Assembly (NCBI RefSeq): GCF_000008645.1
Contig: NC_000916.1
Span: 420,001-452,000, forward strand
Length of the DNA: 32,000 nt
Direction of reading: 5' to 3'
From: Methanothermobacter thermautotrophicus str. Delta H
GTDB taxonomy: Archaea; Methanobacteriota; Methanobacteria; Methanobacteriales; Methanothermobacteraceae
Within the stretch, counting starts at the first letter, position 1. The number at the start of each line of letters is the position of its first letter. The notes below the pieces were generated by a model. The model did no database searches. It was not told the origin of the DNA and saw only the letters and a list, made by a program, of their open reading frames with translations. The translations under genes were made by a program, and so were the position numbers. This document shows, in pieces, positions 14,151 through 30,218 of the stretch.

Positions 14151-14201
14151 ACTGAGGGATACCCTCAGGGAGATGATCAGGAAGAGATGAGGTGTGCATT
14201 C

Positions 14202-14708
14202 ATGAAGAAGTATATTTTAATTGTGATGCTTGCCCTGATGGTTGCGGGCTGCGTCTCTGAGGATGGTAACTACACATACAATGAGGGTGTCCAGGACAGC
14301 AATGTGGACAATCCTGTTAATGATTCATGGACCAGCGACTCCCAGGATAAGGTTAACGATACTGCTGAGAAAAAATCCAGTTATGAGGCATCAGGCAGCT
14401 GTTACCATGTGGTTGACGGTGACACCATAGACGTTGAGGGCGTCGGGAGGATACGCCTGGTAGGGGTTAACACCCCTGAACGTGGACAGCCAGGCTACAG
14501 GGAGGCGAAGGACTTCGTGAAGTCCATGTGCCTTGGAAGAACAGTCCAGCTGGACATCGATGATGCTAAAAGACACGACAGGTATGGGAGGGTCCTTGCA
14601 GTTGTCTACGTCGACGGTGTCAACCTCAACAGGGAGCTTCTCAGGCGCGGCTATGCCGAGGTAATGTACATACCACCCTCTGAGTTTAACCCATATGGGT
14701 GGACATAA
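14202..14708 (+). CDS. Secreted/lipoprotein staphylococcal-nuclease (SNase/thermonuclease) homologue
   Basis: MKKYILIVMLALMVAGC is a signal peptide with a lipobox-like Cys. The SNase core reads VVDGDTIDV...IRLVGVNTPE...EAKDFV...DRYGRVLAVVYVDGVNLNRELLRRGYA. A GAGGTG SD lies 8 nt upstream of ATG 14202, which I prefer over 14187. Confidence 0.8.
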   Translation: MKKYILIVMLALMVAGCVSEDGNYTYNEGVQDSNVDNPVNDSWTSDSQDKVNDTAEKKSSYEASGSCYHVVDGDTIDVEGVGRIRLVGVNTPERGQPGYREAKDFVKSMCLGRTVQLDIDDAKRHDRYGRVLAVVYVDGVNLNRELLRRGYAEVMYIPPSEFNPYGWT

Positions 14709-14773: not shown

Positions 14774-16015
14774 ATGTCAGATGTTGTGTTGATTGACATA
14801 TTTGCAGGTGCGGGGGGGCTTACTGAAGGTTTCCTTCGGAGTGATTATACATTCGTTTCACATATTGAGATGGACAGGGATGCGATTCAGACACTGGAGA
14901 CAAGGGGACTCTATCATCACCTGCAGAGCGATGGTGACCCCGAGGATTACACCGAATACGTTAATGGTGAGATAGGACGTGAAGAACTATTCAGAAGATA
15001 TCCTGACTTTGACAGTGAACTGTACATGAACCTTGAACTCACAGAGGAAAACGTGGACAGGGTCATAGAGACCATCAGGTCAAAGATGAATGATATGGGG
15101 ACAGTTTCTGTTGATGGCATAATAGGTGGGCCTCCATGTCAGGCGTACTCATATGCTGGCAGATCCCGGAAGAACATGGAAAAGGACAGGAGAAACTACC
15201 TCTACCTCCTGTACATTAAATTCCTGAAAGAATTCCAGCCGGAATTCTTTGTATTCGAGAACGTCCCCGGGATGAAGTCAGCGCAAAGGGGCCACATACT
15301 ATCTGATTTCCAGAGGAAGGTAACAGACCTGGAATATAAACTTGACTTTGAAGTGCGTGATGCATATAACTTCGGGGTCCCTCAGAGGAGAAGGAGGATC
15401 ATAGTCATCGGCCACCGCATGGAAGATAAAAGGATACAGTTTGATGAGGAGAGGTATGCCGGTACAGTGAATGACATCCTATGTGATCTGCCCGCCCTTG
15501 AACCCGGCCAGGGCACAGACGGGCCCCAGGAATATAGATCCAGACCATCACGCCTCCTGAATGAGATGGGTATAAGGACAGAGAATGATATTCTCCGACA
15601 TCACCAGGCGCGAAGACACAACCCGCGGGACCGCGAAATTTACAGGAGAACAATTGACGCATGGAACTCAGAGAGGAGAAGATTAAAATATACAGAACTT
15701 CCACCGGAACTCAGGACACACAGGAACACCAGGAGCTTCCTTGACCGTTACAAGGTGGTTGCAGGGGACCTCCCCTATTCCCATACCATTGTCGCGCATA
15801 TATCAAAGGATGGACACTACTACATCCACCCCGACAGAGAACAGGCCCGTTCTCTGACCGTAAGGGAAGCTGCAAGGATCCAGTCCTTCCCGGATAACTA
15901 CATATTTGAAGGATCCATGACCTCAAAGTACCGGCAGATAGGAAACGCCGTGCCTCCACTAATGTCTGAGAAGATTGCCCGCAAACTTTATGAAATCTAC
16001 AGGGGGGACCTCTGA
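14774..16015 (+). CDS. drmMII: DNA (cytosine-5)-methyltransferase (Dcm family; DrmMII-like position)
   Basis: All core motifs are present: DIFAGAGGLTEGF (I), GGPPCQAYS (IV, 15125-15151), ENVPGM (VI), QRRRRIIVIG (VIII), RSLTVREAARIQSFPDNY (IX) and QIGNAVPP (X). A variable target-recognition region of roughly 120-130 aa lies between VIII and IX. Confidence 0.92.
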   Translation: MSDVVLIDIFAGAGGLTEGFLRSDYTFVSHIEMDRDAIQTLETRGLYHHLQSDGDPEDYTEYVNGEIGREELFRRYPDFDSELYMNLELTEENVDRVIETIRSKMNDMGTVSVDGIIGGPPCQAYSYAGRSRKNMEKDRRNYLYLLYIKFLKEFQPEFFVFENVPGMKSAQRGHILSDFQRKVTDLEYKLDFEVRDAYNFGVPQRRRRIIVIGHRMEDKRIQFDEERYAGTVNDILCDLPALEPGQGTDGPQEYRSRPSRLLNEMGIRTENDILRHHQARRHNPRDREIYRRTIDAWNSERRRLKYTELPPELRTHRNTRSFLDRYKVVAGDLPYSHTIVAHISKDGHYYIHPDREQARSLTVREAARIQSFPDNYIFEGSMTSKYRQIGNAVPPLMSEKIARKLYEIYRGDL

Positions 16016-16137: not shown

Positions 16138-16665
16138 ATGCTTCACAGAACACGCGCAGAACAGGTGCTTGAAATTTATGAAAACTTTGTTGAAAAATTT
16201 CCTGATTTTAAATCGGTGTGTGAAGCGGGACAGGAAACAATAGAAAAAGAAATGGAGTCCCTTGGTCTCAGATGGAGAGCCAGAAATCTCCATAAACTCG
16301 CATGTGAGATTGAAAGCAGACACGGGGGGGCTGTTCCAAAAAACAAAAATGATCTCCTTGAACTTCCAGGCATTGGGAACTACATTTCCTCGGCGTTTTT
16401 ATGTTTTTCCAAAAATATTCCAGAACCCCTTCTGGACACGAACACCGTCAGAATCATTGGTAGATTGTTTGATCTTGAGATCAGTGATTCATCCCGCAGA
16501 AAAAAGGATTTTGAAACAGTAATGAGGAAAATTCTTGAATTTGGTGACTGCAGACACCTTTCACTATCGATGATCGATTTCGGAGAGGCTGTGTGCAGAG
16601 CTAGCGATCCCCTCTGCCATGAATGTCCCCTGAAACTATCATGCAACTTTTACAGGAGATGTTAG
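16138..16665 (+). CDS. mig: HhH-GPD superfamily DNA glycosylase with [4Fe-4S] loop (EndoIII/MutY/Mig.Mth-like). Coordinates start at the first canonical start codon; the conserved frame is open from 15994.
   Basis: LLELPGIGNYISSAF is the HhH-GPD hairpin, LLDTNTVRIIGR matches vDtN..R with the catalytic Asp, and CRASDPLCHECPLKLSC is the Cx6Cx2Cx5C cluster. Upstream, in the same frame with no ATG/GTG/TTG, the sequence reads ..LISEKDLLLDIHTRICEWGKKNLRKFPWRERRDDYGILLAEIM-LHRTRAEQV. This is the conserved N-terminal helix region of this family. Confidence 0.85.
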   Translation: MLHRTRAEQVLEIYENFVEKFPDFKSVCEAGQETIEKEMESLGLRWRARNLHKLACEIESRHGGAVPKNKNDLLELPGIGNYISSAFLCFSKNIPEPLLDTNTVRIIGRLFDLEISDSSRRKKDFETVMRKILEFGDCRHLSLSMIDFGEAVCRASDPLCHECPLKLSCNFYRRC

Positions 16666-16666
16666 A

Positions 16667-19600
16667 ATGAGAAAAACAATGATTGAAGAGGTAATAAAGG
16701 AGGTGCTGGGACCACGAAGTGGCCCTGAGGAATCCATTAAAGGGGACCCCTACGATGAGTATATAACCGGTGTTATCATCCCCGCCGGATGGAGTCCCGC
16801 CATAGAAATGGGTGCTGCTGACCCCGATTCTGAAAATGTGAATACAGACATTGTTTCATCAGGAGAGGATGATGATTCTGATTATGAAAGCTCTGTATTA
16901 TCAGGACCATTCACACGGCCCAGATCATTTGGTATTTCATTCATGGCACCCGCCGGTGCAAAGGAAATGGATATCTGTGTCACGTGGGGTCGATACACCA
17001 GATCCGATGATGAGAAAATGTGGAAGAGAAAAGGCCATTTCTGCATCAAAAAATTTTCACTTGAGGAGGATAACACCCGTGAATGCATCTACCGGGAAGA
17101 TGATGGCAGCATAACGATCAATGTTATGATCAGGGAGGACGGAAACCGTAAAAACGTTAGGGTGATTCTTGTAAATGAACTTAAGGTCGCTCGAAGTGCT
17201 TACAGACCTGAAACAGCCTCCTGCATTTTTCAGCCATCCATTCGCATTAACGTTGAAGACCGTCCGGAAACTTCAGATGCCCCTGATGACTACAGAGATG
17301 AGATGAATTTCATTTACAGAAACAGAAAGATTGATGTGATGGGAATTCAATGCTCTGCAGTATCAAAATCATGTGAATACTCACATAACCTCAATGAGTC
17401 TATTTTATGGCCTGATGGTCTTAATCTGGCTGAAAAATTCCCTGAAATTGAAAATTTCAGAACTCCTGACTTCAGAACAGAATTTGTACCTCTCTATCCC
17501 AGTCCGATGCCATCCTTTGATGTGGAAGGGGTTGATGAACTTTCTGCAGAGAAACTTTCAGAGGCATGGAATTCCAGTTCAATTTCAGAGATAGTGAACC
17601 CCCTCATAGATGCATATGAAAGGTGGATAGAATGCAATAAAGGAATCCAGAAGTCAATGGATGGCAAAAATAAAAAATTTGCATCCGGTATAATCAAAAA
17701 ACAGGAAGAAGCGCTGAAAAGACTTAAAAATGGATTGGAAATCCTCATGGATAATGAGAAAGCAAGGCTCGCATTCTGTTTTGCAAACAGGGTCATATCA
17801 CTTCAGCATCAGTGGAGCCGGCAGGGTGATGATTTCCTCTGGAGACCATTCCAGCTCGCATTTTTTCTCATGAACATCGAACCCATATTCAATCCTGAAT
17901 CAGAATATCGTGATGTTCTGGATCTCCTCTGGATACCAACCGGGGGTGGGAAAACAGAGGCCTATCTTGCCATAATAGCATTTACGATGTCTCTTCGCCG
18001 TCTTAAAGGTTCCATCGGCTCAGAAAATATCCAGAGATGCTATGGAACAGCAGTTATATCAAGATACACCCTGCGCCTCCTCACCGTGCAGCAGTTCAGA
18101 AGGACCCTGAGAATGATAACAGCGGCGGAGTATCTGAGAGTTTTCATATGCGACAGCGGTCTCAGGGGATGGAGACCCTCCAACTGTGATATAAAAGAGG
18201 ACTGGTTATATGGTTCTGTGAGGTTCTCCGCTGGCCTATGGGTAGGTGGCGCCGTGTCTCCACTTCATCTGAGAATAAATAAAGGGGCCATTGACATCAT
18301 GACCTCCTCCGGGGATGGTGGGAATGAAAGTGAGCCGGCCCAGGTCATCAGGTGCCCCGCATGCAATTCATGGTTGAGTCTGCCGGATTCTTCAGAGAGC
18401 TCCCTGCCTGCCCATGATAACACAATAATCACCGTGGTCCAGAAAAAGAAGACAGACCTCAGCTTTGAGCCTTCAGAACTCAAAAAAATGTTTCCTGAAA
18501 TCAGAGAAATCAGAACTTGCAGGGACAACCTCAGGGAGAACCATGAAACACTCATCATAAAATTTGATGAAAGAGATATGGACATCCCCCGGATATCAGA
18601 GATCATGAAAGAACTTGAGAATCACTTTGAGTTCTCATCACTGAGCTGGAGAAGACCCGGCTACTTTGGAAGCTCCTTTGATAAAGGGAGGAGGAAAAAG
18701 AAATATTCAGACTTTGAAATATGGTGTCCCAATCCGGACTGTCCTCTGAATAAGGATGTTGACTGGGCGGAGGGTGTTCCCTCAGATGAGGAATCGGAGT
18801 TTCCCGATGGAAATGCCAGAAGAAAGTTTGAGAGTCCTTTTATAGAAAACAGAAGAATTCCTGTTCCTGCCTACACTGTTGATGAACAGGTATACTCAAG
18901 GTGCCCCACAGTTATAATAAGCACTGCTGATAAGATTGCGAGACTCTCCTTTGAGCCAAAGGCAGCAGCCATCTTCGGAAATGTTGATAAATTCAACATA
19001 TTTTATGGTTATCACAGGGATGGGCTATATCCCATAAACACGACAAAGAGTAGTGAAGCCCATGACACTGACGTGGAAGGGTTTCTGCCCCCTGAACTGA
19101 TAATACAGGACGAACTCCACCTCCTTGACGGTCCCCTCGGAAGCATCTTTGGAATCTATGAGGCATCCGTGGAATCTCTCATATGGCGTGGAGGGCTGAG
19201 ACCAAAATATCTTGCATCCACGGCAACGATAAACAACGCACATGATCAGGTCAGACTTCTCTTTGGAAGGGATCTGTTCCAGTTCCCGCCACACGGCCTT
19301 GAAATAGCAGACTCATTTTTTGTTAAGGAAGAGGATCCCGGTGATGCATGGGATGAACGGATTAGCGGAAGAATTTACATGGGAATCGCCGCACCCGGAA
19401 GAGGTCCGATAACTCCCCAGATAAGGCTATGGTCCCGTGTTCTCAAAACATCTGCGGAAAACACAGGCAACGAAGCCATCAGATATTACTGGACCGTTGT
19501 CGGATACTATAATTCCCTGAGGGAACTTGGAGGTGGGATTGCATTTTACAGGGAGGACGTTGTTGAGAGGTTAAAGGAGATTTCCGTGGATGATCCTCGT

Positions 19601-20374
19601 GATATAGATCCCGACCCGCTGGAACTTTCAAGCAGGATTGATTCAACTGCCCTGCCCCTTGTACTTGACAGAATAGAACGCGACGGAGAACAGCCGGGAG
19701 TCCCGGCATATGATGCCATTTTCACAACATCAATGTTCGGTACCGGTGTGGATGTGCCTCACCTTTCACTCATGATTGTCAGCGGTCAGCCAAAGACAAC
19801 AGGATCCTACATTCAGGCCACAGGGAGGATCGGGCGAAGACGGGGAGGTCTTGTCCTGACATTTCTGAATGCTTCAAGACCCCGGGACATGAACCACTAT
19901 GAAATGTTCATGAGGTATCATGCGAGAATTCATGAAAGCGTTGAATCTGTTTCAGTTTCACCCTATTCCGATGGGGCATTAAATAGAGCCCTTGGACCAG
20001 CGACCGTCGCATTTCTCAGAAACATGCCACTGGCCCGTGTTAACTGGACAGAAGAAGATGGTAAGGTCATATTATCCGGAGAATCCTCTGAAGATATTCA
20101 TTATCTGCAGGAATCCCTCACAAACCGGCTTGATAAAATATTTAACAGAAAAGAGGATGTGGAAATAATTGAAAATTTCCTTGAAGAGTGCATCAAAAAA
20201 TGGAGATCTGTTGCGGAAGAAGTCAATGAACTCCGATTTTCAGAGTACATAACCAGACAACACAACGTGGTCCTTGGCACTCCATCGCATGAATATAAAA
20301 ACCTCAAGACAGTTTTCAGAAATGCTCCAAATTCACTGAGGGATATTGAGGAAACAACAGGTTTCAGGGTGTAA
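16667..20374 (+). CDS. drmA: DISARM DrmA-like large SF2 helicase (1235 aa)
   Basis: Helicase motifs are WIPTGGGKTEAYL (motif I, 17936-17959), IIQDELHLL (DExH, 19109-19120), STAT, and FGTGVDVPHLSLMIVSGQPKTTGSYIQATGRIGRR (V/VI). There is a long N-terminal region and split zinc-ribbon-like pairs CPAC (~18350) and CPNPDC (~18725). AGGAGA lies 8 nt upstream, 1 nt separates it from the glycosylase stop, and a DUF1998 gene follows immediately. Confidence 0.8.
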   Translation: MRKTMIEEVIKEVLGPRSGPEESIKGDPYDEYITGVIIPAGWSPAIEMGAADPDSENVNTDIVSSGEDDDSDYESSVLSGPFTRPRSFGISFMAPAGAKEMDICVTWGRYTRSDDEKMWKRKGHFCIKKFSLEEDNTRECIYREDDGSITINVMIREDGNRKNVRVILVNELKVARSAYRPETASCIFQPSIRINVEDRPETSDAPDDYRDEMNFIYRNRKIDVMGIQCSAVSKSCEYSHNLNESILWPDGLNLAEKFPEIENFRTPDFRTEFVPLYPSPMPSFDVEGVDELSAEKLSEAWNSSSISEIVNPLIDAYERWIECNKGIQKSMDGKNKKFASGIIKKQEEALKRLKNGLEILMDNEKARLAFCFANRVISLQHQWSRQGDDFLWRPFQLAFFLMNIEPIFNPESEYRDVLDLLWIPTGGGKTEAYLAIIAFTMSLRRLKGSIGSENIQRCYGTAVISRYTLRLLTVQQFRRTLRMITAAEYLRVFICDSGLRGWRPSNCDIKEDWLYGSVRFSAGLWVGGAVSPLHLRINKGAIDIMTSSGDGGNESEPAQVIRCPACNSWLSLPDSSESSLPAHDNTIITVVQKKKTDLSFEPSELKKMFPEIREIRTCRDNLRENHETLIIKFDERDMDIPRISEIMKELENHFEFSSLSWRRPGYFGSSFDKGRRKKKYSDFEIWCPNPDCPLNKDVDWAEGVPSDEESEFPDGNARRKFESPFIENRRIPVPAYTVDEQVYSRCPTVIISTADKIARLSFEPKAAAIFGNVDKFNIFYGYHRDGLYPINTTKSSEAHDTDVEGFLPPELIIQDELHLLDGPLGSIFGIYEASVESLIWRGGLRPKYLASTATINNAHDQVRLLFGRDLFQFPPHGLEIADSFFVKEEDPGDAWDERISGRIYMGIAAPGRGPITPQIRLWSRVLKTSAENTGNEAIRYYWTVVGYYNSLRELGGGIAFYREDVVERLKEISVDDPRDIDPDPLELSSRIDSTALPLVLDRIERDGEQPGVPAYDAIFTTSMFGTGVDVPHLSLMIVSGQPKTTGSYIQATGRIGRRRGGLVLTFLNASRPRDMNHYEMFMRYHARIHESVESVSVSPYSDGALNRALGPATVAFLRNMPLARVNWTEEDGKVILSGESSEDIHYLQESLTNRLDKIFNRKEDVEIIENFLEECIKKWRSVAEEVNELRFSEYITRQHNVVLGTPSHEYKNLKTVFRNAPNSLRDIEETTGFRV

Positions 20375-20376
20375 AT

Positions 20377-22113
20377 ATGATGAATAACGTGCAGCATCTT
20401 AGAAGATCCCAGTTCATATTCACCTATGGACCTGGAGCCATACTGGAGGGAAAGAACGGGCCCGTGATGATCCCTTCACTCAACGACGGCCTGGGAAACT
20501 ATTTTGGAATAGAATATCTTGAGAAGTTTGAGATTAAGGATAGCAGGCTTTCAGAGTTTCTCCGGAAAAATAAAGAGATTGATGGAACCATACGGCTATT
20601 TTCACTGCCCACCAATGCCGCCCTCTCCCTTGATGAAAACCGTCACATCTACAATACATGGCGGTTTCCCCGCTGGAAAATATGCTATGGAAGAACAGAA
20701 GGGGGACACCAGAATCCCGTCCTTTATTATGAACGTGAAGGGAAAGGCTGCCCCATATGCGGGTCAAGGAATGCCTCAGCCACCCGATTTGTGGCTGCGT
20801 GTCCTGACGGACATCTTGATGATCTGCCATGGAAATATCTCGTTCACAGTAAAGAAACCGGGTGCAATCCAGAATACTTTCACTGGAAAATTGAGGGACC
20901 ATCAATTGCGGATATAATAATTAAATGTCCGGAATGTGGACAATCATCTTCCATGAGATATATTTACAGAAAAAAATTCCGCTGCACAGGCAGACTTCCT
21001 GAAAGATCAGGGCTCCGTTCAAAGGAATCATGTGAACTTGAAATGAAGATTCTTCAGAGACAGTCAACCTCCCTCAGAATACCCGTAACACTGACCCTTC
21101 TGAAAATTCCCTATAAAACCAAACTGGATGAAATACTGGAGAACGATCCAGAATTCAGGGGTAACCTGCGCGGTATTATAAACCATGCAAATAAAGAAAA
21201 TCTGCTTTCAGACGTTAAGCAGAACAAAAGAAAATATTATGACACCGTTAAAGGGAGTATTGAGGACATGGGTTACAGAAGATTCTGTGAACATGTAATG
21301 GGATTCAATAGCAGGATGATAGCAGATCCCCTTGGAGATGAATTCCGGGCCCTCAGAGAAATGCGAACATCTGAAACACTATCAGTGGGAGAGCCTGTGA
21401 AATTTTCTGTTGATTCTCAGATTACCCTCAAAATTGTTCCTGTTGAAAAATTGAAGCTTACAACTGCTCAGATTGGATACTACAGGAGCCCTTATCTTAA
21501 AAAGGACGAAAATTCAGAGATAATTCCGTCAAATATTGTGAGTACAGGTGAAAGGGAAGCAATTTCCGAGTCATGGTGGTATCCTGCGTTTGAGAGTATG
21601 GGAGAGGGTCTGTTCATAACAGCGGATAGAATAGCCCCGGAATCTTCATCCTTAAATGCGCTGCAGGAGTGGGATGAAAGAAAATTGATTCATGACGAAA
21701 TTCTGAGACAGAACACACCTGTGAGTCCAGAATTTGTGTGGTGGCATACACTTTCACATTCCATTATACAGGCCCTCTCGTTATATGCAGGCTATTCATC
21801 ACCCTCAATAAGAGAAAGAATTTACACAGACTCCGGAGGCGCCGGTGGCATTCTCCTTTATTCATCATCGATTGGAGATGATTGCAGTATGGGAGGTCTC
21901 TCTGGATGTGCTTCAGAATCAAAATTTAAGGAGATATGGAAAATAGCAATGAATAATATTGAATTCTGCTCCAACGATCCGATATGTCATCAGAATCGGA
22001 TTTCAGATGGAAATTACAACGGATCCGCATGCCACCGCTGCCTGATGCTATCAGAGACATCATGTGAACACAGGAACAGGTGGCTGGATAGGCATGCTGT
22101 TCTTGGAGATTGA
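20377..22113 (+). CDS. drmB: DISARM DrmB-like DUF1998 protein (578 aa)
   Basis: The N-terminus RRSQFIFTYGPGAILEG is typical of DUF1998 proteins. Internal cysteine pairs are CPICG...CPDGH and CPECG. The C-terminal DUF1998 cluster is CSNDPICHQ...GSACHRCLMLSETSCEHRNRWLDR (21967-22071). It starts 2 nt after the DrmA-like stop. Confidence 0.8.
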   Translation: MMNNVQHLRRSQFIFTYGPGAILEGKNGPVMIPSLNDGLGNYFGIEYLEKFEIKDSRLSEFLRKNKEIDGTIRLFSLPTNAALSLDENRHIYNTWRFPRWKICYGRTEGGHQNPVLYYEREGKGCPICGSRNASATRFVAACPDGHLDDLPWKYLVHSKETGCNPEYFHWKIEGPSIADIIIKCPECGQSSSMRYIYRKKFRCTGRLPERSGLRSKESCELEMKILQRQSTSLRIPVTLTLLKIPYKTKLDEILENDPEFRGNLRGIINHANKENLLSDVKQNKRKYYDTVKGSIEDMGYRRFCEHVMGFNSRMIADPLGDEFRALREMRTSETLSVGEPVKFSVDSQITLKIVPVEKLKLTTAQIGYYRSPYLKKDENSEIIPSNIVSTGEREAISESWWYPAFESMGEGLFITADRIAPESSSLNALQEWDERKLIHDEILRQNTPVSPEFVWWHTLSHSIIQALSLYAGYSSPSIRERIYTDSGGAGGILLYSSSIGDDCSMGGLSGCASESKFKEIWKIAMNNIEFCSNDPICHQNRISDGNYNGSACHRCLMLSETSCEHRNRWLDRHAVLGD

Positions 22114-22146
22114 GGATCTGAACTGATCAGAAATGGTGGTGAATAG

Positions 22147-25062
22147 ATGGAGCCTGCATATTACTATCATGATTATCCCGTGTGTCCAAACTGCAAAGAA
22201 CCTGTGATCACAGGAGCTCCCCTGCTGATTGAGGATGATGGAACATTTAGGTGTTCCTCCTGCGACGCCTTTTTCAGTCCTGCGGTGCATCTTCCGGAAA
22301 ATGAAGGGGTACATGAATTCCTGACGAAAAATCTGAAAGAACCTCCCAGTGAGGAACTGCCCCTTATCTGGCCCATAAAAAATAACGTGATTGAAAAATC
22401 ATATCTCAGCTGGCTTCCCAATATCAGTGAAGGAAAGTACCTGATAACATGGCCATGGAGGAATATCAGGTTCCTCCCAGTTCTAATCTGCGAGTGCCTC
22501 AGGGTTAAAGGAGATGCCAAGATCGTTGTGATCGGTGAGATCAATACCGGTGAAAGTAAAAATGAGCTGGGTTTTCCTGACCCCTTTTCAGCGCTCGGAA
22601 GCCTCCAATACATTGAAGATATGTCTAAGATGGATTCAGGTGATCTCAGAAATCTTAGAAGATTATTAAAAATAGACAGAAAAAATGTATTCAAAAAGAA
22701 AAAAAAGATCCATTACAGAATAAAGGATTCAAAGAACAGACATACGACAGAAATATCAGTATACAGACCAGAAATGACCATTAGAAAATGCATAAACCGC
22801 ATTTTAAAGTACTATAAGAATTTATATGGAATGAATGCTGTAAGGAGTATAACCCAGAAGGATGGGAAGGGTGATAAAAGAATTAAAAAACTGAAGGATG
22901 AAGGAATAATCGCCATAAGCATTGAAGAAAGGGAAGAATGGACGGGCAAAAAACTCAATTTTCCGGTATCTGACCTTTTTCATGTAATACTGAATTATGA
23001 TAACTTAACACGTTTTAAAGATCACTTTAAGTATGATTGCATAACAGATGTCAGGGATACAGATACTTCAGACAGTTCCGTGGTTTTTATCTCACAGACC
23101 CTGGAACCAGAAAAACTCTTTGGCATCGTTGAAGAATGCAACCCAGATATTGTATTTTTCACAGATTCAGATTATTTCGTCAATGAAAGGCTTTTCAACG
23201 GTAGGAGGTGGCAAAAATTCAGAGAATTTCTTCGTTCAACAGAGTGTACTGTTCTGATGTTTTCACTCAGACCCGACAGCAGACACCTGTACAGAGACCT
23301 TCAGGACAGCTTCACATGGCACACCTGGGATTGCATACCCATTCTTGACATACTGACCGGAGATGAAGATCATTCAAGACCATCCCCATTTTCATCATCA
23401 TTCAGTGAAATATCTGTCCCGGGGATTAATGCTGAGATAGAGTACATCCATCTCGAGGAGATTGATAGAATAGAAGAAATCTCCGAAAAGATCCTGAAAA
23501 TAGATAACGGTAAAAATGTGCGCCGTTATCTAAAATATCTTCCTCAGACACCTCTCAAGCTCCGCGGCCCACACAATTATTCAAATGGTGGCTGGGTCAT
23601 TGATAACATTCTGAATCAGATCCTGGATACACCAATCTTTGACGAGGTGAAAAACACATTCGAAGAGGTTTATTCAATTTCATCGGGCCCCCAGAGAAAC
23701 CCCATACTGAACTCCGTGAAAGAAATCATTGAAGCGGAACTTTCAGAGGATGACAGAAAATCTATATTCATAGCTTTAAGATCATCGCGGGAAACAAAGA
23801 GCCTGAAAAAAACTTTTGAAATTGATGAAGAGAATCCTGATGTGCTTGATGCTGTTGATATATGCACCTGGAATGATCTCCCCACCCACCATGGGGAAGG
23901 TCCCTCAGTGGTAATAGCAACTTCATATCCACCCATCGGATACTCTCTGAATGATACAGATATAGATAAATTTTACTTCATAGGAGGATCAACAGCCATT
24001 GAAAAAATAAAATCAGTAGTTAACAACAGAATCACAGAGCAGATTACAAAACCTCTTCACATTCCATCAAGAAAAGAAAGAGCGCCCGAACTTCTCTTTG
24101 AGATTACAGGAAAAATTCATGTTCCTGAAACCGTTAAAGAAGATATCCTAGAGTTTGAAAGATCCATTGAATCAGGATCATATTCAAAGATATCGAATTC
24201 GTATGGGAAAACCTATAAAAAGCGTGCGAGAACAATAAGAGCAGGCACTGAATGTGTGCTTGTGATCAATGAAATGAATTGTGGAATGTTCATACCATCC
24301 CACAGGCTTCTTTTCTTTAAGGATGAAACTGTCGACAGGATCGAACACATCAGAGCCGGTGATAAACCTGAAAATCTTCAGAACAGGACTCTTTTACTGG
24401 ATGAACATGGATTCTATACATCATTCAAAGTCCTTTTCACCAGATTCATGATAGAAATTGCCCCAAACCTGAAAATAAAACGTTCCTACTACACCTGGAA
24501 CGGCTTCAAAGAACTTGTGGATGACTCATATGAATGGTTAAGGAACATCCGAAATGCCATGAAGAAGCTTATGGATGCCCGTGACTGGAATGAAAACAGG
24601 GCAAAGGATTACCTATCAGAATATCTTGTTAAATATGATCTCAACGCCAGAAACCCCGAGTATATAAGAGATCACTGGCTGTCGGATCCAGATATCATAC
24701 TGACGTCGGAGGGTCATGTTCCAGTTTTTGATGTCGAGCACCCCAAGGGAATTTCAGATGTTGAAAAAATATACAGGGCTCTGGATGAACTATTTCCTGA
24801 AATGTGTCTTGATGATGAAAAAGCAAGAAGATCATACATTGCATCACGGACTCTTCAGAAACTGAGAAGAAAATTTTTAACTGATGAAAAGCAATCGCTG
24901 CATCAACGGTACCACAGATTCCATGACGAGCTCTGGAAAGAAATAAATTACGTCCTTAAACGTTCCGATAAATTTAAAATAAAGGATGCCAGAATTGTTA
25001 AGGTCAAGATAGATTCGCCATCCATGAAAATACTTCAAGATTATAAGAGGTATATAACATGA
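22147..25062 (+). CDS. Large uncharacterised protein (971 aa) with N-terminal zinc ribbon; last gene of the DISARM-like operon
   Basis: The intact 971-aa ORF has a GGTGGTGA SD 5 nt upstream and starts 33 nt after the DrmB-like stop. CPNC-x20-CSSC forms a zinc ribbon at residues ~13-40. Two alpha/beta-looking regions follow (KIVVIGEI, VVFISQT, DIVFFTDSDY, TVLMFS; later SIFIALRS, VVIATSYP, FYFIGGS), with no Walker A and no HKD motif. The C-terminus is helical and K/R/E-rich. I recognise no family. Confidence 0.75.
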   Translation: MEPAYYYHDYPVCPNCKEPVITGAPLLIEDDGTFRCSSCDAFFSPAVHLPENEGVHEFLTKNLKEPPSEELPLIWPIKNNVIEKSYLSWLPNISEGKYLITWPWRNIRFLPVLICECLRVKGDAKIVVIGEINTGESKNELGFPDPFSALGSLQYIEDMSKMDSGDLRNLRRLLKIDRKNVFKKKKKIHYRIKDSKNRHTTEISVYRPEMTIRKCINRILKYYKNLYGMNAVRSITQKDGKGDKRIKKLKDEGIIAISIEEREEWTGKKLNFPVSDLFHVILNYDNLTRFKDHFKYDCITDVRDTDTSDSSVVFISQTLEPEKLFGIVEECNPDIVFFTDSDYFVNERLFNGRRWQKFREFLRSTECTVLMFSLRPDSRHLYRDLQDSFTWHTWDCIPILDILTGDEDHSRPSPFSSSFSEISVPGINAEIEYIHLEEIDRIEEISEKILKIDNGKNVRRYLKYLPQTPLKLRGPHNYSNGGWVIDNILNQILDTPIFDEVKNTFEEVYSISSGPQRNPILNSVKEIIEAELSEDDRKSIFIALRSSRETKSLKKTFEIDEENPDVLDAVDICTWNDLPTHHGEGPSVVIATSYPPIGYSLNDTDIDKFYFIGGSTAIEKIKSVVNNRITEQITKPLHIPSRKERAPELLFEITGKIHVPETVKEDILEFERSIESGSYSKISNSYGKTYKKRARTIRAGTECVLVINEMNCGMFIPSHRLLFFKDETVDRIEHIRAGDKPENLQNRTLLLDEHGFYTSFKVLFTRFMIEIAPNLKIKRSYYTWNGFKELVDDSYEWLRNIRNAMKKLMDARDWNENRAKDYLSEYLVKYDLNARNPEYIRDHWLSDPDIILTSEGHVPVFDVEHPKGISDVEKIYRALDELFPEMCLDDEKARRSYIASRTLQKLRRKFLTDEKQSLHQRYHRFHDELWKEINYVLKRSDKFKIKDARIVKVKIDSPSMKILQDYKRYIT

Positions 25063-25072
25063 GAGTACGAAG

Positions 25073-26824
25073 TCACTTCCACCCCTCAATGATCCTCTGT
25101 TTCAGTATGCGGAACTCCTCATCCTCAAGCAACCTTCCATTCTTTACTATATGCCCCCTGAGGGTCCTCAGAATGAATGATACCACAGCATGACCTATCA
25201 TGTCACCCTTAAGACCATATGGGGGCATGGAGAGGAATTTCATCTCATCCACCGGATCAAAGTCGCCCCTTGAAAATTTTTCAACTGTCACATCCACCAT
25301 GGTCTTAACTGGGTGGTAGACATCTGGAAGGAGGTTAAGGTTCTCATCAACTATCCAGTCACCCCCGGGGCCCCTGAGGATGTGGGCGATGAACCATAAT
25401 AATCCACTCCCTGTTTTCTTTTTGAACTCTTCAAGATTCTCAGAGAAGAATATTTCAAAGACCTTCGGGTAATTTCCAGTCTTCCAGAGGTTTCTGTTTC
25501 CACGTATCACAGGGAGGTTCTCAGGGCCAGAGTGGAAGATCCTCCTTGAAAGCTCACTGTTTATCAGCTCGCTGAGACCATAAAGCCTATCCCCCCTCCC
25601 TGATTCACCATTGAGGTACCACTGGAAACCTGATGCCATCAGATCCCCGACCCACGCCGACACCATCCTCCCTGCAGCATCACTGTGCTCAGGGTCATCT
25701 GAACTCAGCGCAAGGGTCATGTGGTCGAGGAGGATCTCATAGTCCTCAGCAGCCATTGAGGCGTCAGGGAATACCATGAGAACGTTATCAGGTCCTTGGA
25801 GGGTCGGGGCGGGCATCCCCTCATGGGTTCTAAGTATGAGGGCCACAAGGATATCTGATCCTCTGCCATGGAAGTCATCAGCTGAGACCTCAGGATTCAG
25901 TGTGGAAGCATACCCTATTCGGAGCTCCCTGAGTGAGGAACCCCTCAGGAACCCCTCAAGGTCATCCCTTCTTTCACCAAAAAGTTTATCAGGTTCATTT
26001 ATTATTAATTCTCCCAGTCTATCCCTGAATTCCAGATCTTCAGAGCCCAAGTGAGGCCTTTCATCGATCTTAACCCTGAATGAGGAGATATAGCTGTCAA
26101 GTATCTCATCCGAGGATGTATCATCAAGATGGATGACACCGTCGTCCAGGGTGATTGATGGGGACTCCTGCAGTTTAACTGCGATTGATTCCATGGTGGT
26201 CCCGAAAAGTCTGAGGGGGCCCCCCGGGCATTCATCACCGTAAAGGTATTCCAGTCCAATCTCCCGGGAACCGATATCCTCTGCAAGCCTGTAGAGGGAG
26301 TAGGCCACCACATGGTGGTCCAGGTCATCCAGATGTATCCTTTTAACCAATGAGCTCCGTCCCCTCTTCCTCATGGATACGATGGCACCCAGACGCGAGT
26401 TATCAAACATGTTGATGAGGGCTGAGACAGGATTTTCCACTGTGGAGTCCTTAATATCACCGAGATCCGGCCTTATGGCCTCCATGATCCCCTTCTTATC
26501 GAGGTACTCATCGAATCCCACATTGTCACAGAAGAGATTAACGATGGGGGATCCATGGTACATGCTGACCCAGAGGATCTGCCATGCTGCCACGGGTTCC
26601 ATGAAGTAGAGGTCCCTGATCCTGCCAAAGAGTGGGGTTACTTTTTCCTTAACAATGAGGCCTGCATCGGCCAGCCAGGACCCGACGGCCTTCACCTGTA
26701 CCGGACCCAGATTGTTCCTTTCATGCCATCTTTCCTCATGGGTGAAGATTAATGGCATCCATTCATCCCTGAGGCCAAAGGTGGAGTACCTGTCAATTCC
26801 ATTTAACTTTCTGGCTCTCATCAT
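25073..26824 (-). CDS. Uncharacterised protein (583 aa), convergent with the DISARM-like operon and divergent from the McrB-like gene
   Basis: The ORF is intact, with no NTPase or nuclease motif recognised by eye. The N-terminal ~200 aa (STFGLRDEWM...LGPVQVKAVGSWLADAGLIV...WQILWVSMYH...) loosely resemble the DUF4007 pattern. That resemblance is unverified. Confidence 0.7.
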   Translation of the reverse strand: MMRARKLNGIDRYSTFGLRDEWMPLIFTHEERWHERNNLGPVQVKAVGSWLADAGLIVKEKVTPLFGRIRDLYFMEPVAAWQILWVSMYHGSPIVNLFCDNVGFDEYLDKKGIMEAIRPDLGDIKDSTVENPVSALINMFDNSRLGAIVSMRKRGRSSLVKRIHLDDLDHHVVAYSLYRLAEDIGSREIGLEYLYGDECPGGPLRLFGTTMESIAVKLQESPSITLDDGVIHLDDTSSDEILDSYISSFRVKIDERPHLGSEDLEFRDRLGELIINEPDKLFGERRDDLEGFLRGSSLRELRIGYASTLNPEVSADDFHGRGSDILVALILRTHEGMPAPTLQGPDNVLMVFPDASMAAEDYEILLDHMTLALSSDDPEHSDAAGRMVSAWVGDLMASGFQWYLNGESGRGDRLYGLSELINSELSRRIFHSGPENLPVIRGNRNLWKTGNYPKVFEIFFSENLEEFKKKTGSGLLWFIAHILRGPGGDWIVDENLNLLPDVYHPVKTMVDVTVEKFSRGDFDPVDEMKFLSMPPYGLKGDMIGHAVVSFILRTLRGHIVKNGRLLEDEEFRILKQRIIEGWK

Positions 26825-26864: not shown

Positions 26865-28505
26865 GTGAACTTGATCAGATACGTTAATCTCAGAATAATA
26901 TCAGACAGGGATGAGATAGAATCTCAGCAGAAAAGGCTGGAAAATATTCTGAAGGAGAGAGCAGATAAGGTCGTTGAGGGGGGTGCCGGTTTTCAGGGGG
27001 GTGAGGAGAAGGGTAAGGTATACTGGATGTCTGACCTTGGCATATGGTACATGACCCGATTCATAGAGGGGAGCAGGTACTGGAATGGCTTCGGGACAGA
27101 GGAGCCAGAGGAGGGAGGTAACAGGACAATCGTGTGTGAGATAAACTTTCCCCCGGAGGGTATAAACCGTAGGGTTGGGGCTGCTATAGCGCGTGATCCC
27201 ACAGGAAACTACTATGTGGTGCACAGGGGCAAACTAGGTGGGAATTACAGTAAAAGAATATTTGAGGAGAACTACCACGGTGAATGGACAACAGTCATTG
27301 ACGGTGATCGGCAAGAAAAGGTTGTGGTCATAGGAAAAATTGATGAGACAATCCCTGAGAAAATAAGGAACTTTGTATATGAGGTCCAGAGGATAAAGGG
27401 CATGAAAGCCGATTCTAATCTTGAAGAAAATTTTAAGAAAGAAAGTGGGACAGACATTTACCAGCATCTTGACAAAGGAACAGGAACAGACTTTTACCAG
27501 TACCTGCAGATTCATGGTTATCACTTCAGACCGGAACTCGTTGAGAACTTCCTCCTCTCCCTCAAGGTCAAGCCCTTCGTGATACTGACCGGTAACTCGG
27601 GTACAGGTAAGACGAAGCTTGCACAGCTCTACGGCAGTTACATATCCACAGAGAATGACAAAAGGTACCTGGTCGTCCCGGTGGGTGCCAACTGGACCGA
27701 GACGAGGCACATCTTCGGCTACCTCAACATAATGACGGGGGAATACCAGAGCACCCCGGCCCTGGACTTCATCATGAGGGCCTCCAGGGACCCTGACAAC
27801 CCCTACATCCTGATACTCGATGAGATGAACCTATCACACGTTGAACGCTACTTCTCTGACTTCCTCTCAGCCATGGAGAGCGGCGAACCAGTACCACTCC
27901 ATGATGACCCCAACTCTGAGTTCCCATCCATGATAGAGATACCCGAGAACCTCAGGGTCGTGGGAACAGTCAACGTGGATGAGACCACCTACATGTTCTC
28001 ACCGAAGGTCCTTGACCGGGCAAACACCATAGAATTCGAAACCCTCAGGCCAGGGGAGTATCTTAACGGCACCCCCCACGACCAGGGCCCAGCAGGGGAC
28101 ACAGAATTCCTTGAAGACATCATGGAATACAGCAATGATAACATGAAGGACGACCTCCACATGGTATGGGATGAACTTGTGGCTGAACTTGACTTCTTCC
28201 ATGAAACCCTCACAACCCCAGGATTCGACTTCGGCTTCAGGGTGACAGATGAGATCCTCAGATTCATGCATGCAGCCTGGATCTACGAGAAAAGACCCCG
28301 GGAATGGGAAAACTGGGAGCGCTACCTTGACGCCCAGATCAAACAGAAGATCCTCCCCAAGATCCACGGCCCCGAAAGACTCCTCAGGGACACACTCGAT
28401 AAACTCAAAGAACACTGCCAGGGCAGATTCCCTGAATCAGAGAAGAAGCTTGAGGAGATGCAGAACACCCTGAAAACCCAGCGCTACGCCTCCTTCATCA
28501 GGTAG
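26865..28505 (+). CDS. mcrB: McrB-like AAA+ (AAA_5) GTPase subunit of a type IV restriction system, with an unrecognised N-terminal domain
   Basis: Motifs are FVILTGNSGTGKTKLA (Walker A, 27591-27614), YILILDEMNLSHVERYF (Walker B) and VVGTVNVDETTYMFSPKVLDRANTIEF (McrB-signature MNxxD-type segment). The ORF-track start is a GTG. ATG 27027 (MSDLGIWYM) is an alternative start. Confidence 0.85.
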   Translation: MNLIRYVNLRIISDRDEIESQQKRLENILKERADKVVEGGAGFQGGEEKGKVYWMSDLGIWYMTRFIEGSRYWNGFGTEEPEEGGNRTIVCEINFPPEGINRRVGAAIARDPTGNYYVVHRGKLGGNYSKRIFEENYHGEWTTVIDGDRQEKVVVIGKIDETIPEKIRNFVYEVQRIKGMKADSNLEENFKKESGTDIYQHLDKGTGTDFYQYLQIHGYHFRPELVENFLLSLKVKPFVILTGNSGTGKTKLAQLYGSYISTENDKRYLVVPVGANWTETRHIFGYLNIMTGEYQSTPALDFIMRASRDPDNPYILILDEMNLSHVERYFSDFLSAMESGEPVPLHDDPNSEFPSMIEIPENLRVVGTVNVDETTYMFSPKVLDRANTIEFETLRPGEYLNGTPHDQGPAGDTEFLEDIMEYSNDNMKDDLHMVWDELVAELDFFHETLTTPGFDFGFRVTDEILRFMHAAWIYEKRPREWENWERYLDAQIKQKILPKIHGPERLLRDTLDKLKEHCQGRFPESEKKLEEMQNTLKTQRYASFIR

Positions 28506-28514
28506 TGATCACCG

Positions 28515-30218
28515 ATGGACCAGGAGATAATCATAGAATTCAGGGCAGGGAGACTGAGGATAAATGGGGGTCCAGCGCCCATTGAAGTACCTCCCAGGAT
28601 GGTGAGGGTCAGCGGCCACCCCTTAACACTCATAAACGTCCCCCTGGTTGACAGGCCCGGACTTAACCCCATCGAACACTGCCCCTACTACGACAACCTC
28701 AGTGAAATAATGCTCCTGGAGGAGACAGAATACCAGGTCCTCTTCGAAACTGAAGGATCCCTCAAGGATGTGAAGGTCCTCCCCCATGCAGATGAACTCT
28801 TCAGGAGGATACGATTCAAATTCAGGGACAGAGTGGCGGGTATACTCAACTTCAGGAGCTACGCCGGCAAATCCTTCCTCGACATCGAGACACCCGGGGG
28901 CCATGAATCCATACCCATCGAGGTGAGGTCAAAGAAGATAGACTACCATGAACAGTACCCTGCAATGCTGGCAGACCTCTCAGAGGAGATCACATCCATC
29001 ATCCTCGAGGCTGACTCCTCCATATTCCAGACCTTCACCCCCTCAGGTGAGGATGACAGGACACTCTACGAGGACTTTCTTTTACTGGAGTACCTCTTCA
29101 GACCCGAGAACCTCCCGGCTGCAGCTGAACGCATAAATCACAGCTTCTATTCCGGACTTAAACGTGAGGTCCAGGTTGTACCCGCAGGCCTGGCCTCAGT
29201 GGTGGACCCCAACGGACTGGTGGGTGTGCTGTCAGACCCGGCCAGCATGGATGCAGATGGGAACATAAGGAACCTCCCGCAGCTGAACCTGCGGGAGACG
29301 CCTGACACTCCAGAGAACCGCTTCTACAGGTACTTCCTGGAATCACTGGAGGACAGGATACTCTCGCTCCATGAATCAGCCCCCGAGGGTTACATCAGGG
29401 ACTCCCTGGAGGGATTCCTGGATGAGGTGAACCTCCTCCTCTCTGCAGGGTGGCTGATGGATGTTGGTGAACTCCAGGTCCTCCCCCTGAACTCACAGGT
29501 ACTCCAGAAGAGGGAGGGCTACAGGGACGTTCTCAGGTACTTCTTCATCCTTGACCTCGCACTCAGGTTCACCTGGGAGGGGCTTGAGGACAGTATCAGG
29601 GGATTTGAGAGGAGGCTCAGTGAACTCTATGAGTACTGGTGCTACTTCAGGATCCTCAGGATCCTGGAGGACATAACCGGGGATAGAGTTAACCCCCGGG
29701 ACATATTCGTCAGGGATGGCTGGAGGGTCCGTCTGAGGACCGGGAACTCCATACTCAGGTTCAGCATGGATGACACCGAGATAGCCCTCTCCTACAATGG
29801 AAGGTTCGCCGGGGACACCCCCTGCAGGTCCTATTCACTCCCCTTCAAACCTGACTACTCCATACTCGTGGCTGTGGATGAGTGCACCTGCTTCATACAC
29901 CTGGATGCAAAGTACCGGTCCACTGTGAGGCCAGATGACCTCTATGAGAGTATCGACATGAGGGACTCTGAGGAGGAACTTGAGAGGAGGTTCAGGGATG
30001 GTGATGTTTACAAGATGCACAGCTACAAGGATGCCATACTGCGCAGTGTGGGGGCCTACATACTCTACCCCGGGGATGAGGATGTTTTATTCAGTGAGGG
30101 AGGCGGTGAGGTGCCATCGGTTGGTGCATTTCCACTGAGGCCCGGCGAATCCCATGTGGATGAGAGGAGACTGCGTGACTTTATAGAGAGGGCTATTCTG
30201 AATATAATCGAAGGGTAA
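28515..30218 (+). CDS. mcrC: McrC-like / DUF2357-type PD-(D/E)xK nuclease partner of the McrB-like GTPase
   Basis: It starts 9 nt after the McrB-like stop. The C-terminal nuclease core is KPDYSILVAV...CFIHLDAKYR (D...D-x-K) followed by VYKMHSYKDAI...GAYILYPG. This is the pattern seen in McrC/DUF2357 partners. Confidence 0.8.
   Translation: MDQEIIIEFRAGRLRINGGPAPIEVPPRMVRVSGHPLTLINVPLVDRPGLNPIEHCPYYDNLSEIMLLEETEYQVLFETEGSLKDVKVLPHADELFRRIRFKFRDRVAGILNFRSYAGKSFLDIETPGGHESIPIEVRSKKIDYHEQYPAMLADLSEEITSIILEADSSIFQTFTPSGEDDRTLYEDFLLLEYLFRPENLPAAAERINHSFYSGLKREVQVVPAGLASVVDPNGLVGVLSDPASMDADGNIRNLPQLNLRETPDTPENRFYRYFLESLEDRILSLHESAPEGYIRDSLEGFLDEVNLLLSAGWLMDVGELQVLPLNSQVLQKREGYRDVLRYFFILDLALRFTWEGLEDSIRGFERRLSELYEYWCYFRILRILEDITGDRVNPRDIFVRDGWRVRLRTGNSILRFSMDDTEIALSYNGRFAGDTPCRSYSLPFKPDYSILVAVDECTCFIHLDAKYRSTVRPDDLYESIDMRDSEEELERRFRDGDVYKMHSYKDAILRSVGAYILYPGDEDVLFSEGGGEVPSVGAFPLRPGESHVDERRLRDFIERAILNIIEG

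Follow-up and report, generated by a model that had tools for sequence, protein, structure and literature searches.

In PADLOC, class 2 (type II) DISARM is defined by DrmA and DrmB together with DrmC, DrmE and also DrmMII (PMC9252829). Among the genetic results of Ofir 2018 that are cited in bioRxiv 10.1101/2021.12.28.474362, drmE was required for defence and drmC was dispensable. DrmAB is activated by DNA structure and not by sequence, with methylation acting only as a modulator, and the roles of DrmD and DrmE were left open (PMC9142583). In class 2 DISARM, DrmE is genetically essential. DrmD, the Snf2/RapA-like subunit of class 1 DISARM, goes with the class that carries an N6-adenine methylase. 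The protein analyzed here (protein X, 971 residues) is encoded at 22147-25062 (+) of a 32,000-nucleotide stretch of Methanothermobacter thermautotrophicus str. Delta H (NC_000916.1, positions 420,001 to 452,000 of the forward strand), which is referred to as the window, and is the last gene of a DISARM operon.

Set against the five-gene type II definition, the Delta H locus contains DrmA, the adjoining DrmB and DrmMII; the system fails the definition because DrmE is unrecognised and DrmC is lacking. PADLOC- and NCBIfam-type tools hold no model for X, which leaves Delta H without a recognised DrmE. An earlier note made from the DNA letters alone (the original prediction) had proposed a candidate novel sensor or effector subunit in a DISARM-like operon. 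That X is an accessory subunit, so far uncharacterised, in an operon resembling class 2 DISARM was borne out, as was the identification of DrmA and DrmB. Protein X is 100% identical to the hypothetical ('unknown') protein AAB85005.1 / WP_010876138.1 / O26599 of the same strain. No publication was found in a literature search for MTH495-499 or O26599.

The reading preferred here, to which a probability of about 0.6 is given, is that X is the DrmE-equivalent of an archaeal-type class 2 DISARM system, a helicase-like accessory subunit that has no P-loop and acts as a sensor or adaptor. Class 2 DISARM as a system type is already known, as is the fact that it contains an enigmatic extra subunit. 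The novel elements are the X family, which lacks annotation, occurs mainly in archaea and escapes current defence-finding models, the methylase constantly paired with a glycosylase of HhH-GPD type and the natural variants that have no DrmC. The pseudo-helicase architecture with a zinc ribbon, as predicted by the structural model, and the location of X after DrmC are also new. Protein X is informative for work on DISARM and archaeal immunity and overturns no expectation.

Family and genomic neighbourhood of protein X

The open reading frame (ORF) of X is intact and ATG-initiated, with 971 codons, and is preceded by a Shine-Dalgarno-like GGTGGTG (22135-22141, +) 5 nt before the start codon. The original description of an intact frame with a ribosome-binding site, translationally close to drmB, was correct. 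Since the gap after the drmB stop is only 33 nt, X is taken to be co-transcribed with the operon. Comparison with the orthologue in Methanothermobacter sp. DP (66% identity) gave a dN/dS of 0.16, against 0.22 for DrmB and 0.08 for the methylase of the same locus. The value for X is comparable to those of DrmB and the methylase and the gene is therefore selected and functional, not a chance ORF.

A word-indexed homologue search found 8 relatives (7 with the 74-sequence alignment), and the family came to light only when 1.84 billion representatives were searched exhaustively with a profile. At 50% identity the matches formed 176 clusters, of which 133 had an E below 1e-30, and the length was mostly 950-1040 residues. 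Searches of plasmids by tblastn with X and its relative P0104 as queries gave no match.

Besides the window, 16 related loci were examined, drawn from metagenomes and from metagenome-assembled genomes (MAGs) of six lineages of archaea and bacteria, namely Methanobacterium/Methanobacteriaceae, Bathyarchaeota, Thermoplasmata, Heimdallarchaeota, Syntrophaceae and Desulfuromonas. DISARM genes adjoined X in all 16. Where the flanks were present the gene order was [C5 methylase + HhH-GPD] - DrmA - DrmB - small PLD DrmC (∼153 residues) - X, and the start codon of X frequently overlapped the stop codon of the upstream DrmC. The HhH-GPD gene adjoined the methylase in 11 related loci as well as in the window. 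This survey, which had been proposed as a check, leaves it almost certain that X belongs to the DISARM system, and the term 'orphan' that had been applied to X does not hold for a strictly DISARM-linked family of this size. In DISARM operons of archaea and of some bacteria, the DrmE slot is taken by this family.

DrmC was found alongside X in 13 of the 16 related loci. It was missing only from the Methanothermobacter loci examined (the window and M. sp. DP) and from one Thermoplasmata locus; no PLD ORF was detected in the Delta H operon by Pfam, where DrmB is followed directly by X. Locus L015 has kept X and lost DrmC. Loss of DrmC has occurred at least twice while X was retained, which matches the published genetics as cited above, and these loci amount to natural 'experiments'. 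Because DrmC sits between DrmB and X in the relatives, X lies outside the DrmC slot and is an additional, strictly DISARM-linked component in the slot after it. Of the two positions that had been suggested for X, that of DrmC was thus not upheld; as to DrmE, a C-terminal similarity described below makes it probable that the two proteins are not unrelated.

Several variants of the locus were noted. In M. sp. DP (L008:4504-8233) drmA is split into two ORFs (586 and 632 residues) and drmB and X are intact; the DISARM system of this organism may be decaying. At L024:4833-10016 an X relative of 842 residues (P0128) follows a fused DrmA-DrmB protein of 1727 residues, and the methylase lies downstream, not upstream. 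In one divergent X subgroup there are separate pieces of ∼355-404 and ∼431-689 residues that break near the boundary of the two RecA-like lobes described below. The N-terminal halves are P0123, P0139, P0143 and P0144 and the C-terminal halves P0129, P0131, P0132, P0135, P0138, P0140 and P0142; they may be genuine split genes or fragments of contigs or gene calling. Plasmid loci L025, L026 and L020 contain DrmA/DrmB-like pairs with quite different partners (an AAA ATPase and a hypothetical protein; a NERD protein and a UvrD-like helicase; small hypothetical proteins), and these differing partners show that the DrmAB core is reused in a modular way.

Predicted structure of protein X

Protein X had no match in Pfam, PADLOC (E up to 10) or NCBIfam (E up to 1), both DrmE models included. 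A sequence search of the PDB with the family profile returned zinc fingers only, apart from a single hint to Hef (1wp9, profile positions 516-583, E 0.33). Seven consensus sequences of X subgroups were searched against NCBIfam and Pfam and gave no DrmE match; a Spo0A match to one of them (E 1e-4) was rejected as spurious, single weak matches being unreliable here.

An AlphaFold2 model of X was obtained from the 74-sequence alignment with a mean pLDDT of 88.3 and a pTM of 0.84. In Foldseek searches with this model, as the original prediction had recommended, the PDB contributed 79 matches (E up to 1e-3), every one an SF2 helicase; among them were RIG-I (2.5e-7), ISW1/ISWI, Chd1, INO80, RapA, MDA5/LGP2 and Hef. 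A search against viral structures gave 38 matches at E up to 1e-3, again all SF2 helicases. Degenerate RecA-like lobes with no Walker A motif had been proposed from the strings DIVFFTDSDY (334-343), TVLMFS (368-373) and VVIATSYP (587-594), all of which are present in X, and the confident model agrees with that proposal.

The N-terminus (residues 1-60) carries a Cys4 zinc ribbon formed by C13, C16, C36 and C39 (22183-22263, +), assigned from the conserved cysteines (93-97% in 74 relatives) and from weak Zn-ribbon and Zn-finger matches. The ribbon had been correctly recognised; its spacing is CPNC-x19-CSSC and not x20. It is followed by a RecA1-like lobe (residues ∼70-130 and 311-430; 22354-23436, +), delimited from the AlphaFold2 secondary structure and Foldseek, with a beta-rich insertion at ∼131-310 between its two parts.

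Within lobe 1 the strand-loop-helix topology places T101-W102-P103-W104 (22447-22458, +) at the position of motif I (Walker A), where the P-loop is absent. Conservation of these residues across 74 sequences was 91% for T, 98% for W, 98% for P and 86% for W. The pattern [GA]x4GK[ST] does not occur in X and was found 3 times in 88 long relatives, in non-equivalent places and by chance. The motif II position is occupied by D340-S-D342-Y-F344 (23164-23178, +) after the strand 335-338; D342 is conserved at 87% and is the only well conserved position there, F344 is the majority residue and the neighbours vary. The strongest signatures of the lobe are F372-S373...R379, at the motif III position, and H392-T-W-D395 (23260-23331, +), with conservation of 97% for F, 94% for S, 94% for R, 93% for H and 93% for D.

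The RecA2-like lobe (residues ∼431-640; 23437-24066, +) was assigned from AlphaFold2 secondary structure and contains a five-helix insertion (437-534) after its first strand, a Hel2i-like topology as found in RIG-I and Hef. R628 in this lobe, which may correspond to the arginine finger of motif VI, is 78% conserved in the family; there is no QxxGRxxR pattern. A charged linker of low confidence (residues 664-693; 24136-24225, +; pLDDT below 50) is the sole disordered part of the model. The C-terminal module (residues 696-971; 24232-25059, +) is predicted to consist of a small five-stranded barrel followed by a helical domain in which W797 and W844 are invariant. It had been described as a long, helical and basic C-terminus: the helices are present, mixed with the barrel, and the module is only mildly basic, with a net charge of +4.

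From the SF2 fold matches and the conserved TWPW in place of Walker A, X is very probably a pseudo-helicase, as judged on the predicted model, in which an SF2 scaffold that has no P-loop is combined with an N-terminal Cys4 ribbon. X could instead be active as a non-canonical ATPase or translocase and, in the manner of DrmD in class 1 DISARM, be a second motor. Snf2- and RapA-type ATPases do occur among the fold matches, the motif II position has a conserved acidic residue, and class 1 DISARM employs an active Snf2-like subunit; X, by its predicted fold, and DrmD are both accessory DISARM subunits of SF2 type. DrmD, however, has intact ATPase motifs, and standard models recognise it. The TWPW of X offers no Gly-Lys-Ser/Thr for phosphates, 49 X-family members scanned gave no Helicase_C, ResIII or SNF2 signal in Pfam, X itself gave no PADLOC or Pfam match to DrmD or SNF2, and alignment of the X family with a DrmD by hhalign gave no match (probability 0.3%). 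An active motor is accordingly very improbable.

A nuclease or toxic effector with a cryptic active site, replacing DrmC in Methanothermobacter, was also considered. The Methanothermobacter operon has no intracellular nuclease recognisable by Pfam or PADLOC, the adjoining staphylococcal-nuclease (SNase) homologue is probably extracellular, given its lipoprotein signal peptide, and X contains conserved acidic and histidine residues (D342, H392, D395, E864 and D871). On the other hand, Pfam, PADLOC and NCBIfam revealed no nuclease family or motif in X. The PLD motif HxK(x4)D is absent and there was no PLDc match. No nuclease, methylase or ATPase match was obtained from Pfam for X or 49 relatives, save two weak sub-threshold AAA matches (E 0.007), and the original observation that X has no nuclease, PLD, methylase or ATPase motif was reproduced. 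The fold matches of X are all helicases, and in 13 of the 16 related loci DrmC is present together with X and so has not been replaced. A nuclease role is improbable on this balance, and the effector half of the earlier 'sensor or effector' proposal is unsupported; sensor or adaptor is the better reading of the pseudo-helicase.

Relation to DrmE

To find bona fide DrmE proteins, viral contigs were scanned with an alignment of DrmA from class 2, which led to loci L027 and L028. The large ORFs upstream of DrmA in these loci scored 444 and 367 bits with NCBIfam DrmE_fam (NF038316, curated cut-off 80 bits), and the second also matched DISARM_DrmE (NF038323, curated cut-off 250 bits). A metagenomic relative and two disrupted copies from Nostoc plasmids were added to the DrmE set. 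Additional scans for further DrmE sequences returned self-matches and one metagenomic relative only. Plasmid DrmAB loci were discarded as a source, as they proved to be class 1 or other DrmAB-containing systems.

Residues 786-910 of X (24502-24876, +) were found by hhalign to be remotely similar to the C-terminal domain of bona fide DrmE (∼703-803), with the conserved W, W, P..D and A...R lined up. The 74-sequence X profile gave a probability of 49% (P 1.7e-4) and an independent divergent X subgroup gave 51% (P 1.5e-4); against a cleaned DrmE alignment the probability was 65% (P 5.9e-5, score 50.8). Control scores were 19 for a reversed control and at most 22.8 (median 15.9) for 45 column-shuffled decoys. 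A small hidden Markov model (HMM) of DrmE scored 9-20 bits at the co-linear position in four divergent members of the X family, three of the four above the best of 310 decoys (8.8 bits). When 49 relatives were scanned with Pfam and NCBIfam only zinc-ribbon noise was obtained, together with weak DrmE_fam matches to two divergent relatives (20 and 16 bits), also at the C-terminal co-linear place. In greedy mode only, the alignment was co-linear over ∼700 columns, starting where lobe 1 of X starts and ending close to the C-terminus of DrmE, an extension that is not established.

By the cut-offs of the DrmE models themselves X is outside the DrmE family. On the profile alignments, its C-terminal domain and that of DrmE are probably homologous, and X itself is most likely DrmE-like and very divergent. 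The direct comparison with DrmE that had been called for, carried out with the L027 and L028 proteins, therefore came out in part: no HMM match, and a profile-profile match at the C-terminus only. X resembles DrmE in being a large protein (800-1000 residues), in sharing its operon with DrmA, DrmB and a C5 methylase, and in having the conserved W...W...P..D...A...R pattern in a C-terminal domain of ∼95-125 residues. The two differ in position: X follows DrmC as the 3'-terminal gene of the operon, and DrmE lies upstream of DrmA (L027, L028). An N-terminal zinc ribbon is present in X and not in the DrmE proteins found here; conversely, a domain like the RNA-polymerase-interacting domain (RID) of Mfd is present in DrmE of L027 and was not detected in X.

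These differences bear on whether X is a pseudo-helicase recruited independently of DrmE into the same slot, with no homology between the two, and marks a separate, mainly archaeal DISARM class. That explanation would account for the lack of any DrmE HMM match for X, for 47 of 49 relatives and for every subgroup consensus. It would also account for the different gene positions and for the Mfd-RID-like domain of the one DrmE tested, that of L027. The slot is filled by another unrecognised protein, of 801 residues, in the class 2 operon of a Lactiplantibacillus plantarum plasmid. The C-terminal hhalign match, in contrast, was reproducible with two X-side profiles and scored more than twice the best decoy, the DrmE HMMs matched this co-linear place in several divergent members of the X family, and the greedy alignment points the same way. 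A wholly separate origin is rather unlikely on this evidence, and X outside its C-terminal domain may have been recruited independently; the question concerns the ancestry of X and not its function.

The L. plantarum protein (CP096865.1, L022:3500-5905) lies between DrmMII and DrmA, in an operon that also contains DrmB, and has only 8 relatives, all in lactobacilli. Like X it is a large, unannotated protein in the DrmE slot of a class 2 operon and is matched by no NCBIfam or PADLOC model. It was rejected as a relative of X (hhalign probability 3%); with DrmE, hhalign showed a similarity that is co-linear and weak (P 7e-4). Evidently the DrmE slot is fast-evolving.

DrmE of L027 (L027:7361-9973) matches the RNA-polymerase-interacting (Tudor-like) domain of Mfd/TRCF at residues ∼87-142 (NCBIfam mfd E 1.5e-6; RID of PDB 6yhz E 0.012). 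Both DISARM accessory subunits, DrmE and the RapA-like DrmD of class 1, may be of RNA-polymerase-associated ancestry. In Nostoc sp. HK-01 the DrmE-like gene of one plasmid is truncated beside a transposase (L042:8386-9837) and that of another plasmid is split into L043:4112-5113 and L043:5110-6678.

Proposed role of protein X

The archaeal-type system would comprise DrmMII with a mismatch glycosylase, the DrmA and DrmB proteins, X and, except in Methanothermobacter where it has been lost, DrmC. Protein X would have arisen from an SF2 scaffold of two RecA-like lobes with a RIG-I/Hef-like helical insertion, from which the ATP-binding P-loop was lost. It would have gained the N-terminal Cys4 ribbon, the beta-rich insertion in lobe 1 and a barrel-plus-helical C-terminal module distantly related to the DrmE C-terminus. 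Nucleic acid would be bound by the helicase-like cleft and the ribbon with no translocation, in a complex with the DrmAB motor and, where present, with DrmC. As a sensor or adaptor X may recruit or license DrmAB on invading, unmethylated DNA and would have no nuclease role. A helicase scaffold that has lost its P-loop fits a passive recognition module; taken by itself, the assignment of X as sensor or adaptor is tentative and falls a little short of an even chance.

The best fold matches of X, RIG-I-like receptors and helicases of Hef/FANCM type, share its two RecA-like lobes and, next to the first strand of the second lobe, the helical insertion that follows it. Further common points are a zinc-binding accessory domain and, as a functional analogy only to the role suggested for X, service as a nucleic-acid sensor in immunity. 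X differs from them in having no Walker A loop and in carrying its zinc module at the N-terminus and not as a C-terminal regulatory domain. A broader proposal, which is speculative and rather unlikely, is that the DrmE-slot proteins including the X family are inactivated RIG-I/Hef-like helicases that form the nucleic-acid pattern sensor of class 2 DISARM, with the X family as a distinct class. If true, the zinc-ribbon-bearing X family, together with DrmMII, the mismatch glycosylase and DrmAB(C), would mark a DISARM class of its own that is found mainly in archaea and missed by current tools, and would be a prokaryotic parallel to the helicase-derived receptors of eukaryotic innate immunity.

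Several points weigh against the preferred reading of X as a DrmE-equivalent pseudo-helicase. The absence of DrmE HMM matches is one, and the hhalign match to DrmE (probability 49-65%) is limited to ∼95 aligned columns. The fold is that of a predicted model with low TM-scores (0.15-0.3), which reflect differences in domain arrangement, lobe orientation and insertions, and similarity to RIG-I or Hef was not detectable by sequence (Hef E 0.33). Helicase-motif positions and domain limits were assigned from topology and not by residue-level superposition. Conservation of D342 at the motif II position would be compatible with some nucleotide- or metal-dependent activity. DNA binding by X and its complex with DrmAB we infer from fold and synteny only.

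The analysis provides a structural hypothesis for X and a tentative evolutionary bridge to DrmE. Candidate functional residues are the ribbon cysteines, TWPW, D342, H392/D395 and W797/W844.

Operon and surrounding genes

The first DISARM gene of the operon encodes DrmMII, a C5 cytosine DNA methyltransferase (14774-16015, +; Pfam DNA_methylase E 1e-60; PADLOC DrmMII PDLC02649 E 9e-162). It is followed by an HhH-GPD glycosylase / nicking-enzyme homologue (16138-16665, +; Pfam HhH-GPD E 2e-10; PADLOC type II nicking endonuclease E 2e-27). DrmA (16667-20374, +), in which the GGGKTE and DELH motifs are intact, is an SF2 helicase of YprA type, identified over its full length by PADLOC PDLC02571 (E=0), and DrmB (20377-22113, +) is its DUF1998 / MZB zinc-binding partner (PADLOC PDLC02583 E 1e-170; Pfam MZB). 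The recurrence of zinc motifs in all three large proteins, which had been pointed out from the sequence, was verified, with CPAC/CPNPDC in DrmA and CPIC/CPEC in DrmB. Intergenic gaps are 1-2 nt between the glycosylase and DrmA genes and between those of DrmA and DrmB. The next ORF after X runs convergent to it.

The G+C content of the operon (∼16 kb to 25 kb) is 39-46%, and that of X 39.6%, lower than the 49-58% of the flanks. This suggests that the operon is a cassette gained horizontally from a lineage of lower G+C content, within a defence island.

The SNase homologue (14187-14708, +) lies directly upstream of drmMII, a position kept in M. sp. DP, and bears the lipoprotein-type signal peptide MKKYILIVMLALMVAGC. 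It was rejected as a substitute for DrmC on account of this signal peptide and its probable extracellular location.

The ORF convergent with X (25073-26824, -) encodes 583 residues and is conserved in M. sp. DP. It has no Pfam domain and gave partial PADLOC matches, to BrxP at its N-terminus (E 3.5e-42) and to BrxC/PglY at its C-terminus (E 2e-23). Immediately downstream of the DISARM operon are also a McrB-like AAA_5 protein (26865-28505, +) and a McrC-like DUF2357 + PD-(D/E)xK protein (28515-30218, +), a pair that is likewise downstream of the DISARM operon in M. sp. DP. Two further defence-type helicases are encoded in the window at 5085-8558 (-) and 10994-13462 (-). One is ProA/Hhe-like and matches only positions 560-1709 of a 1903-position model; the other is a DECH helicase of YprA/MrfA type (TIGR03817).

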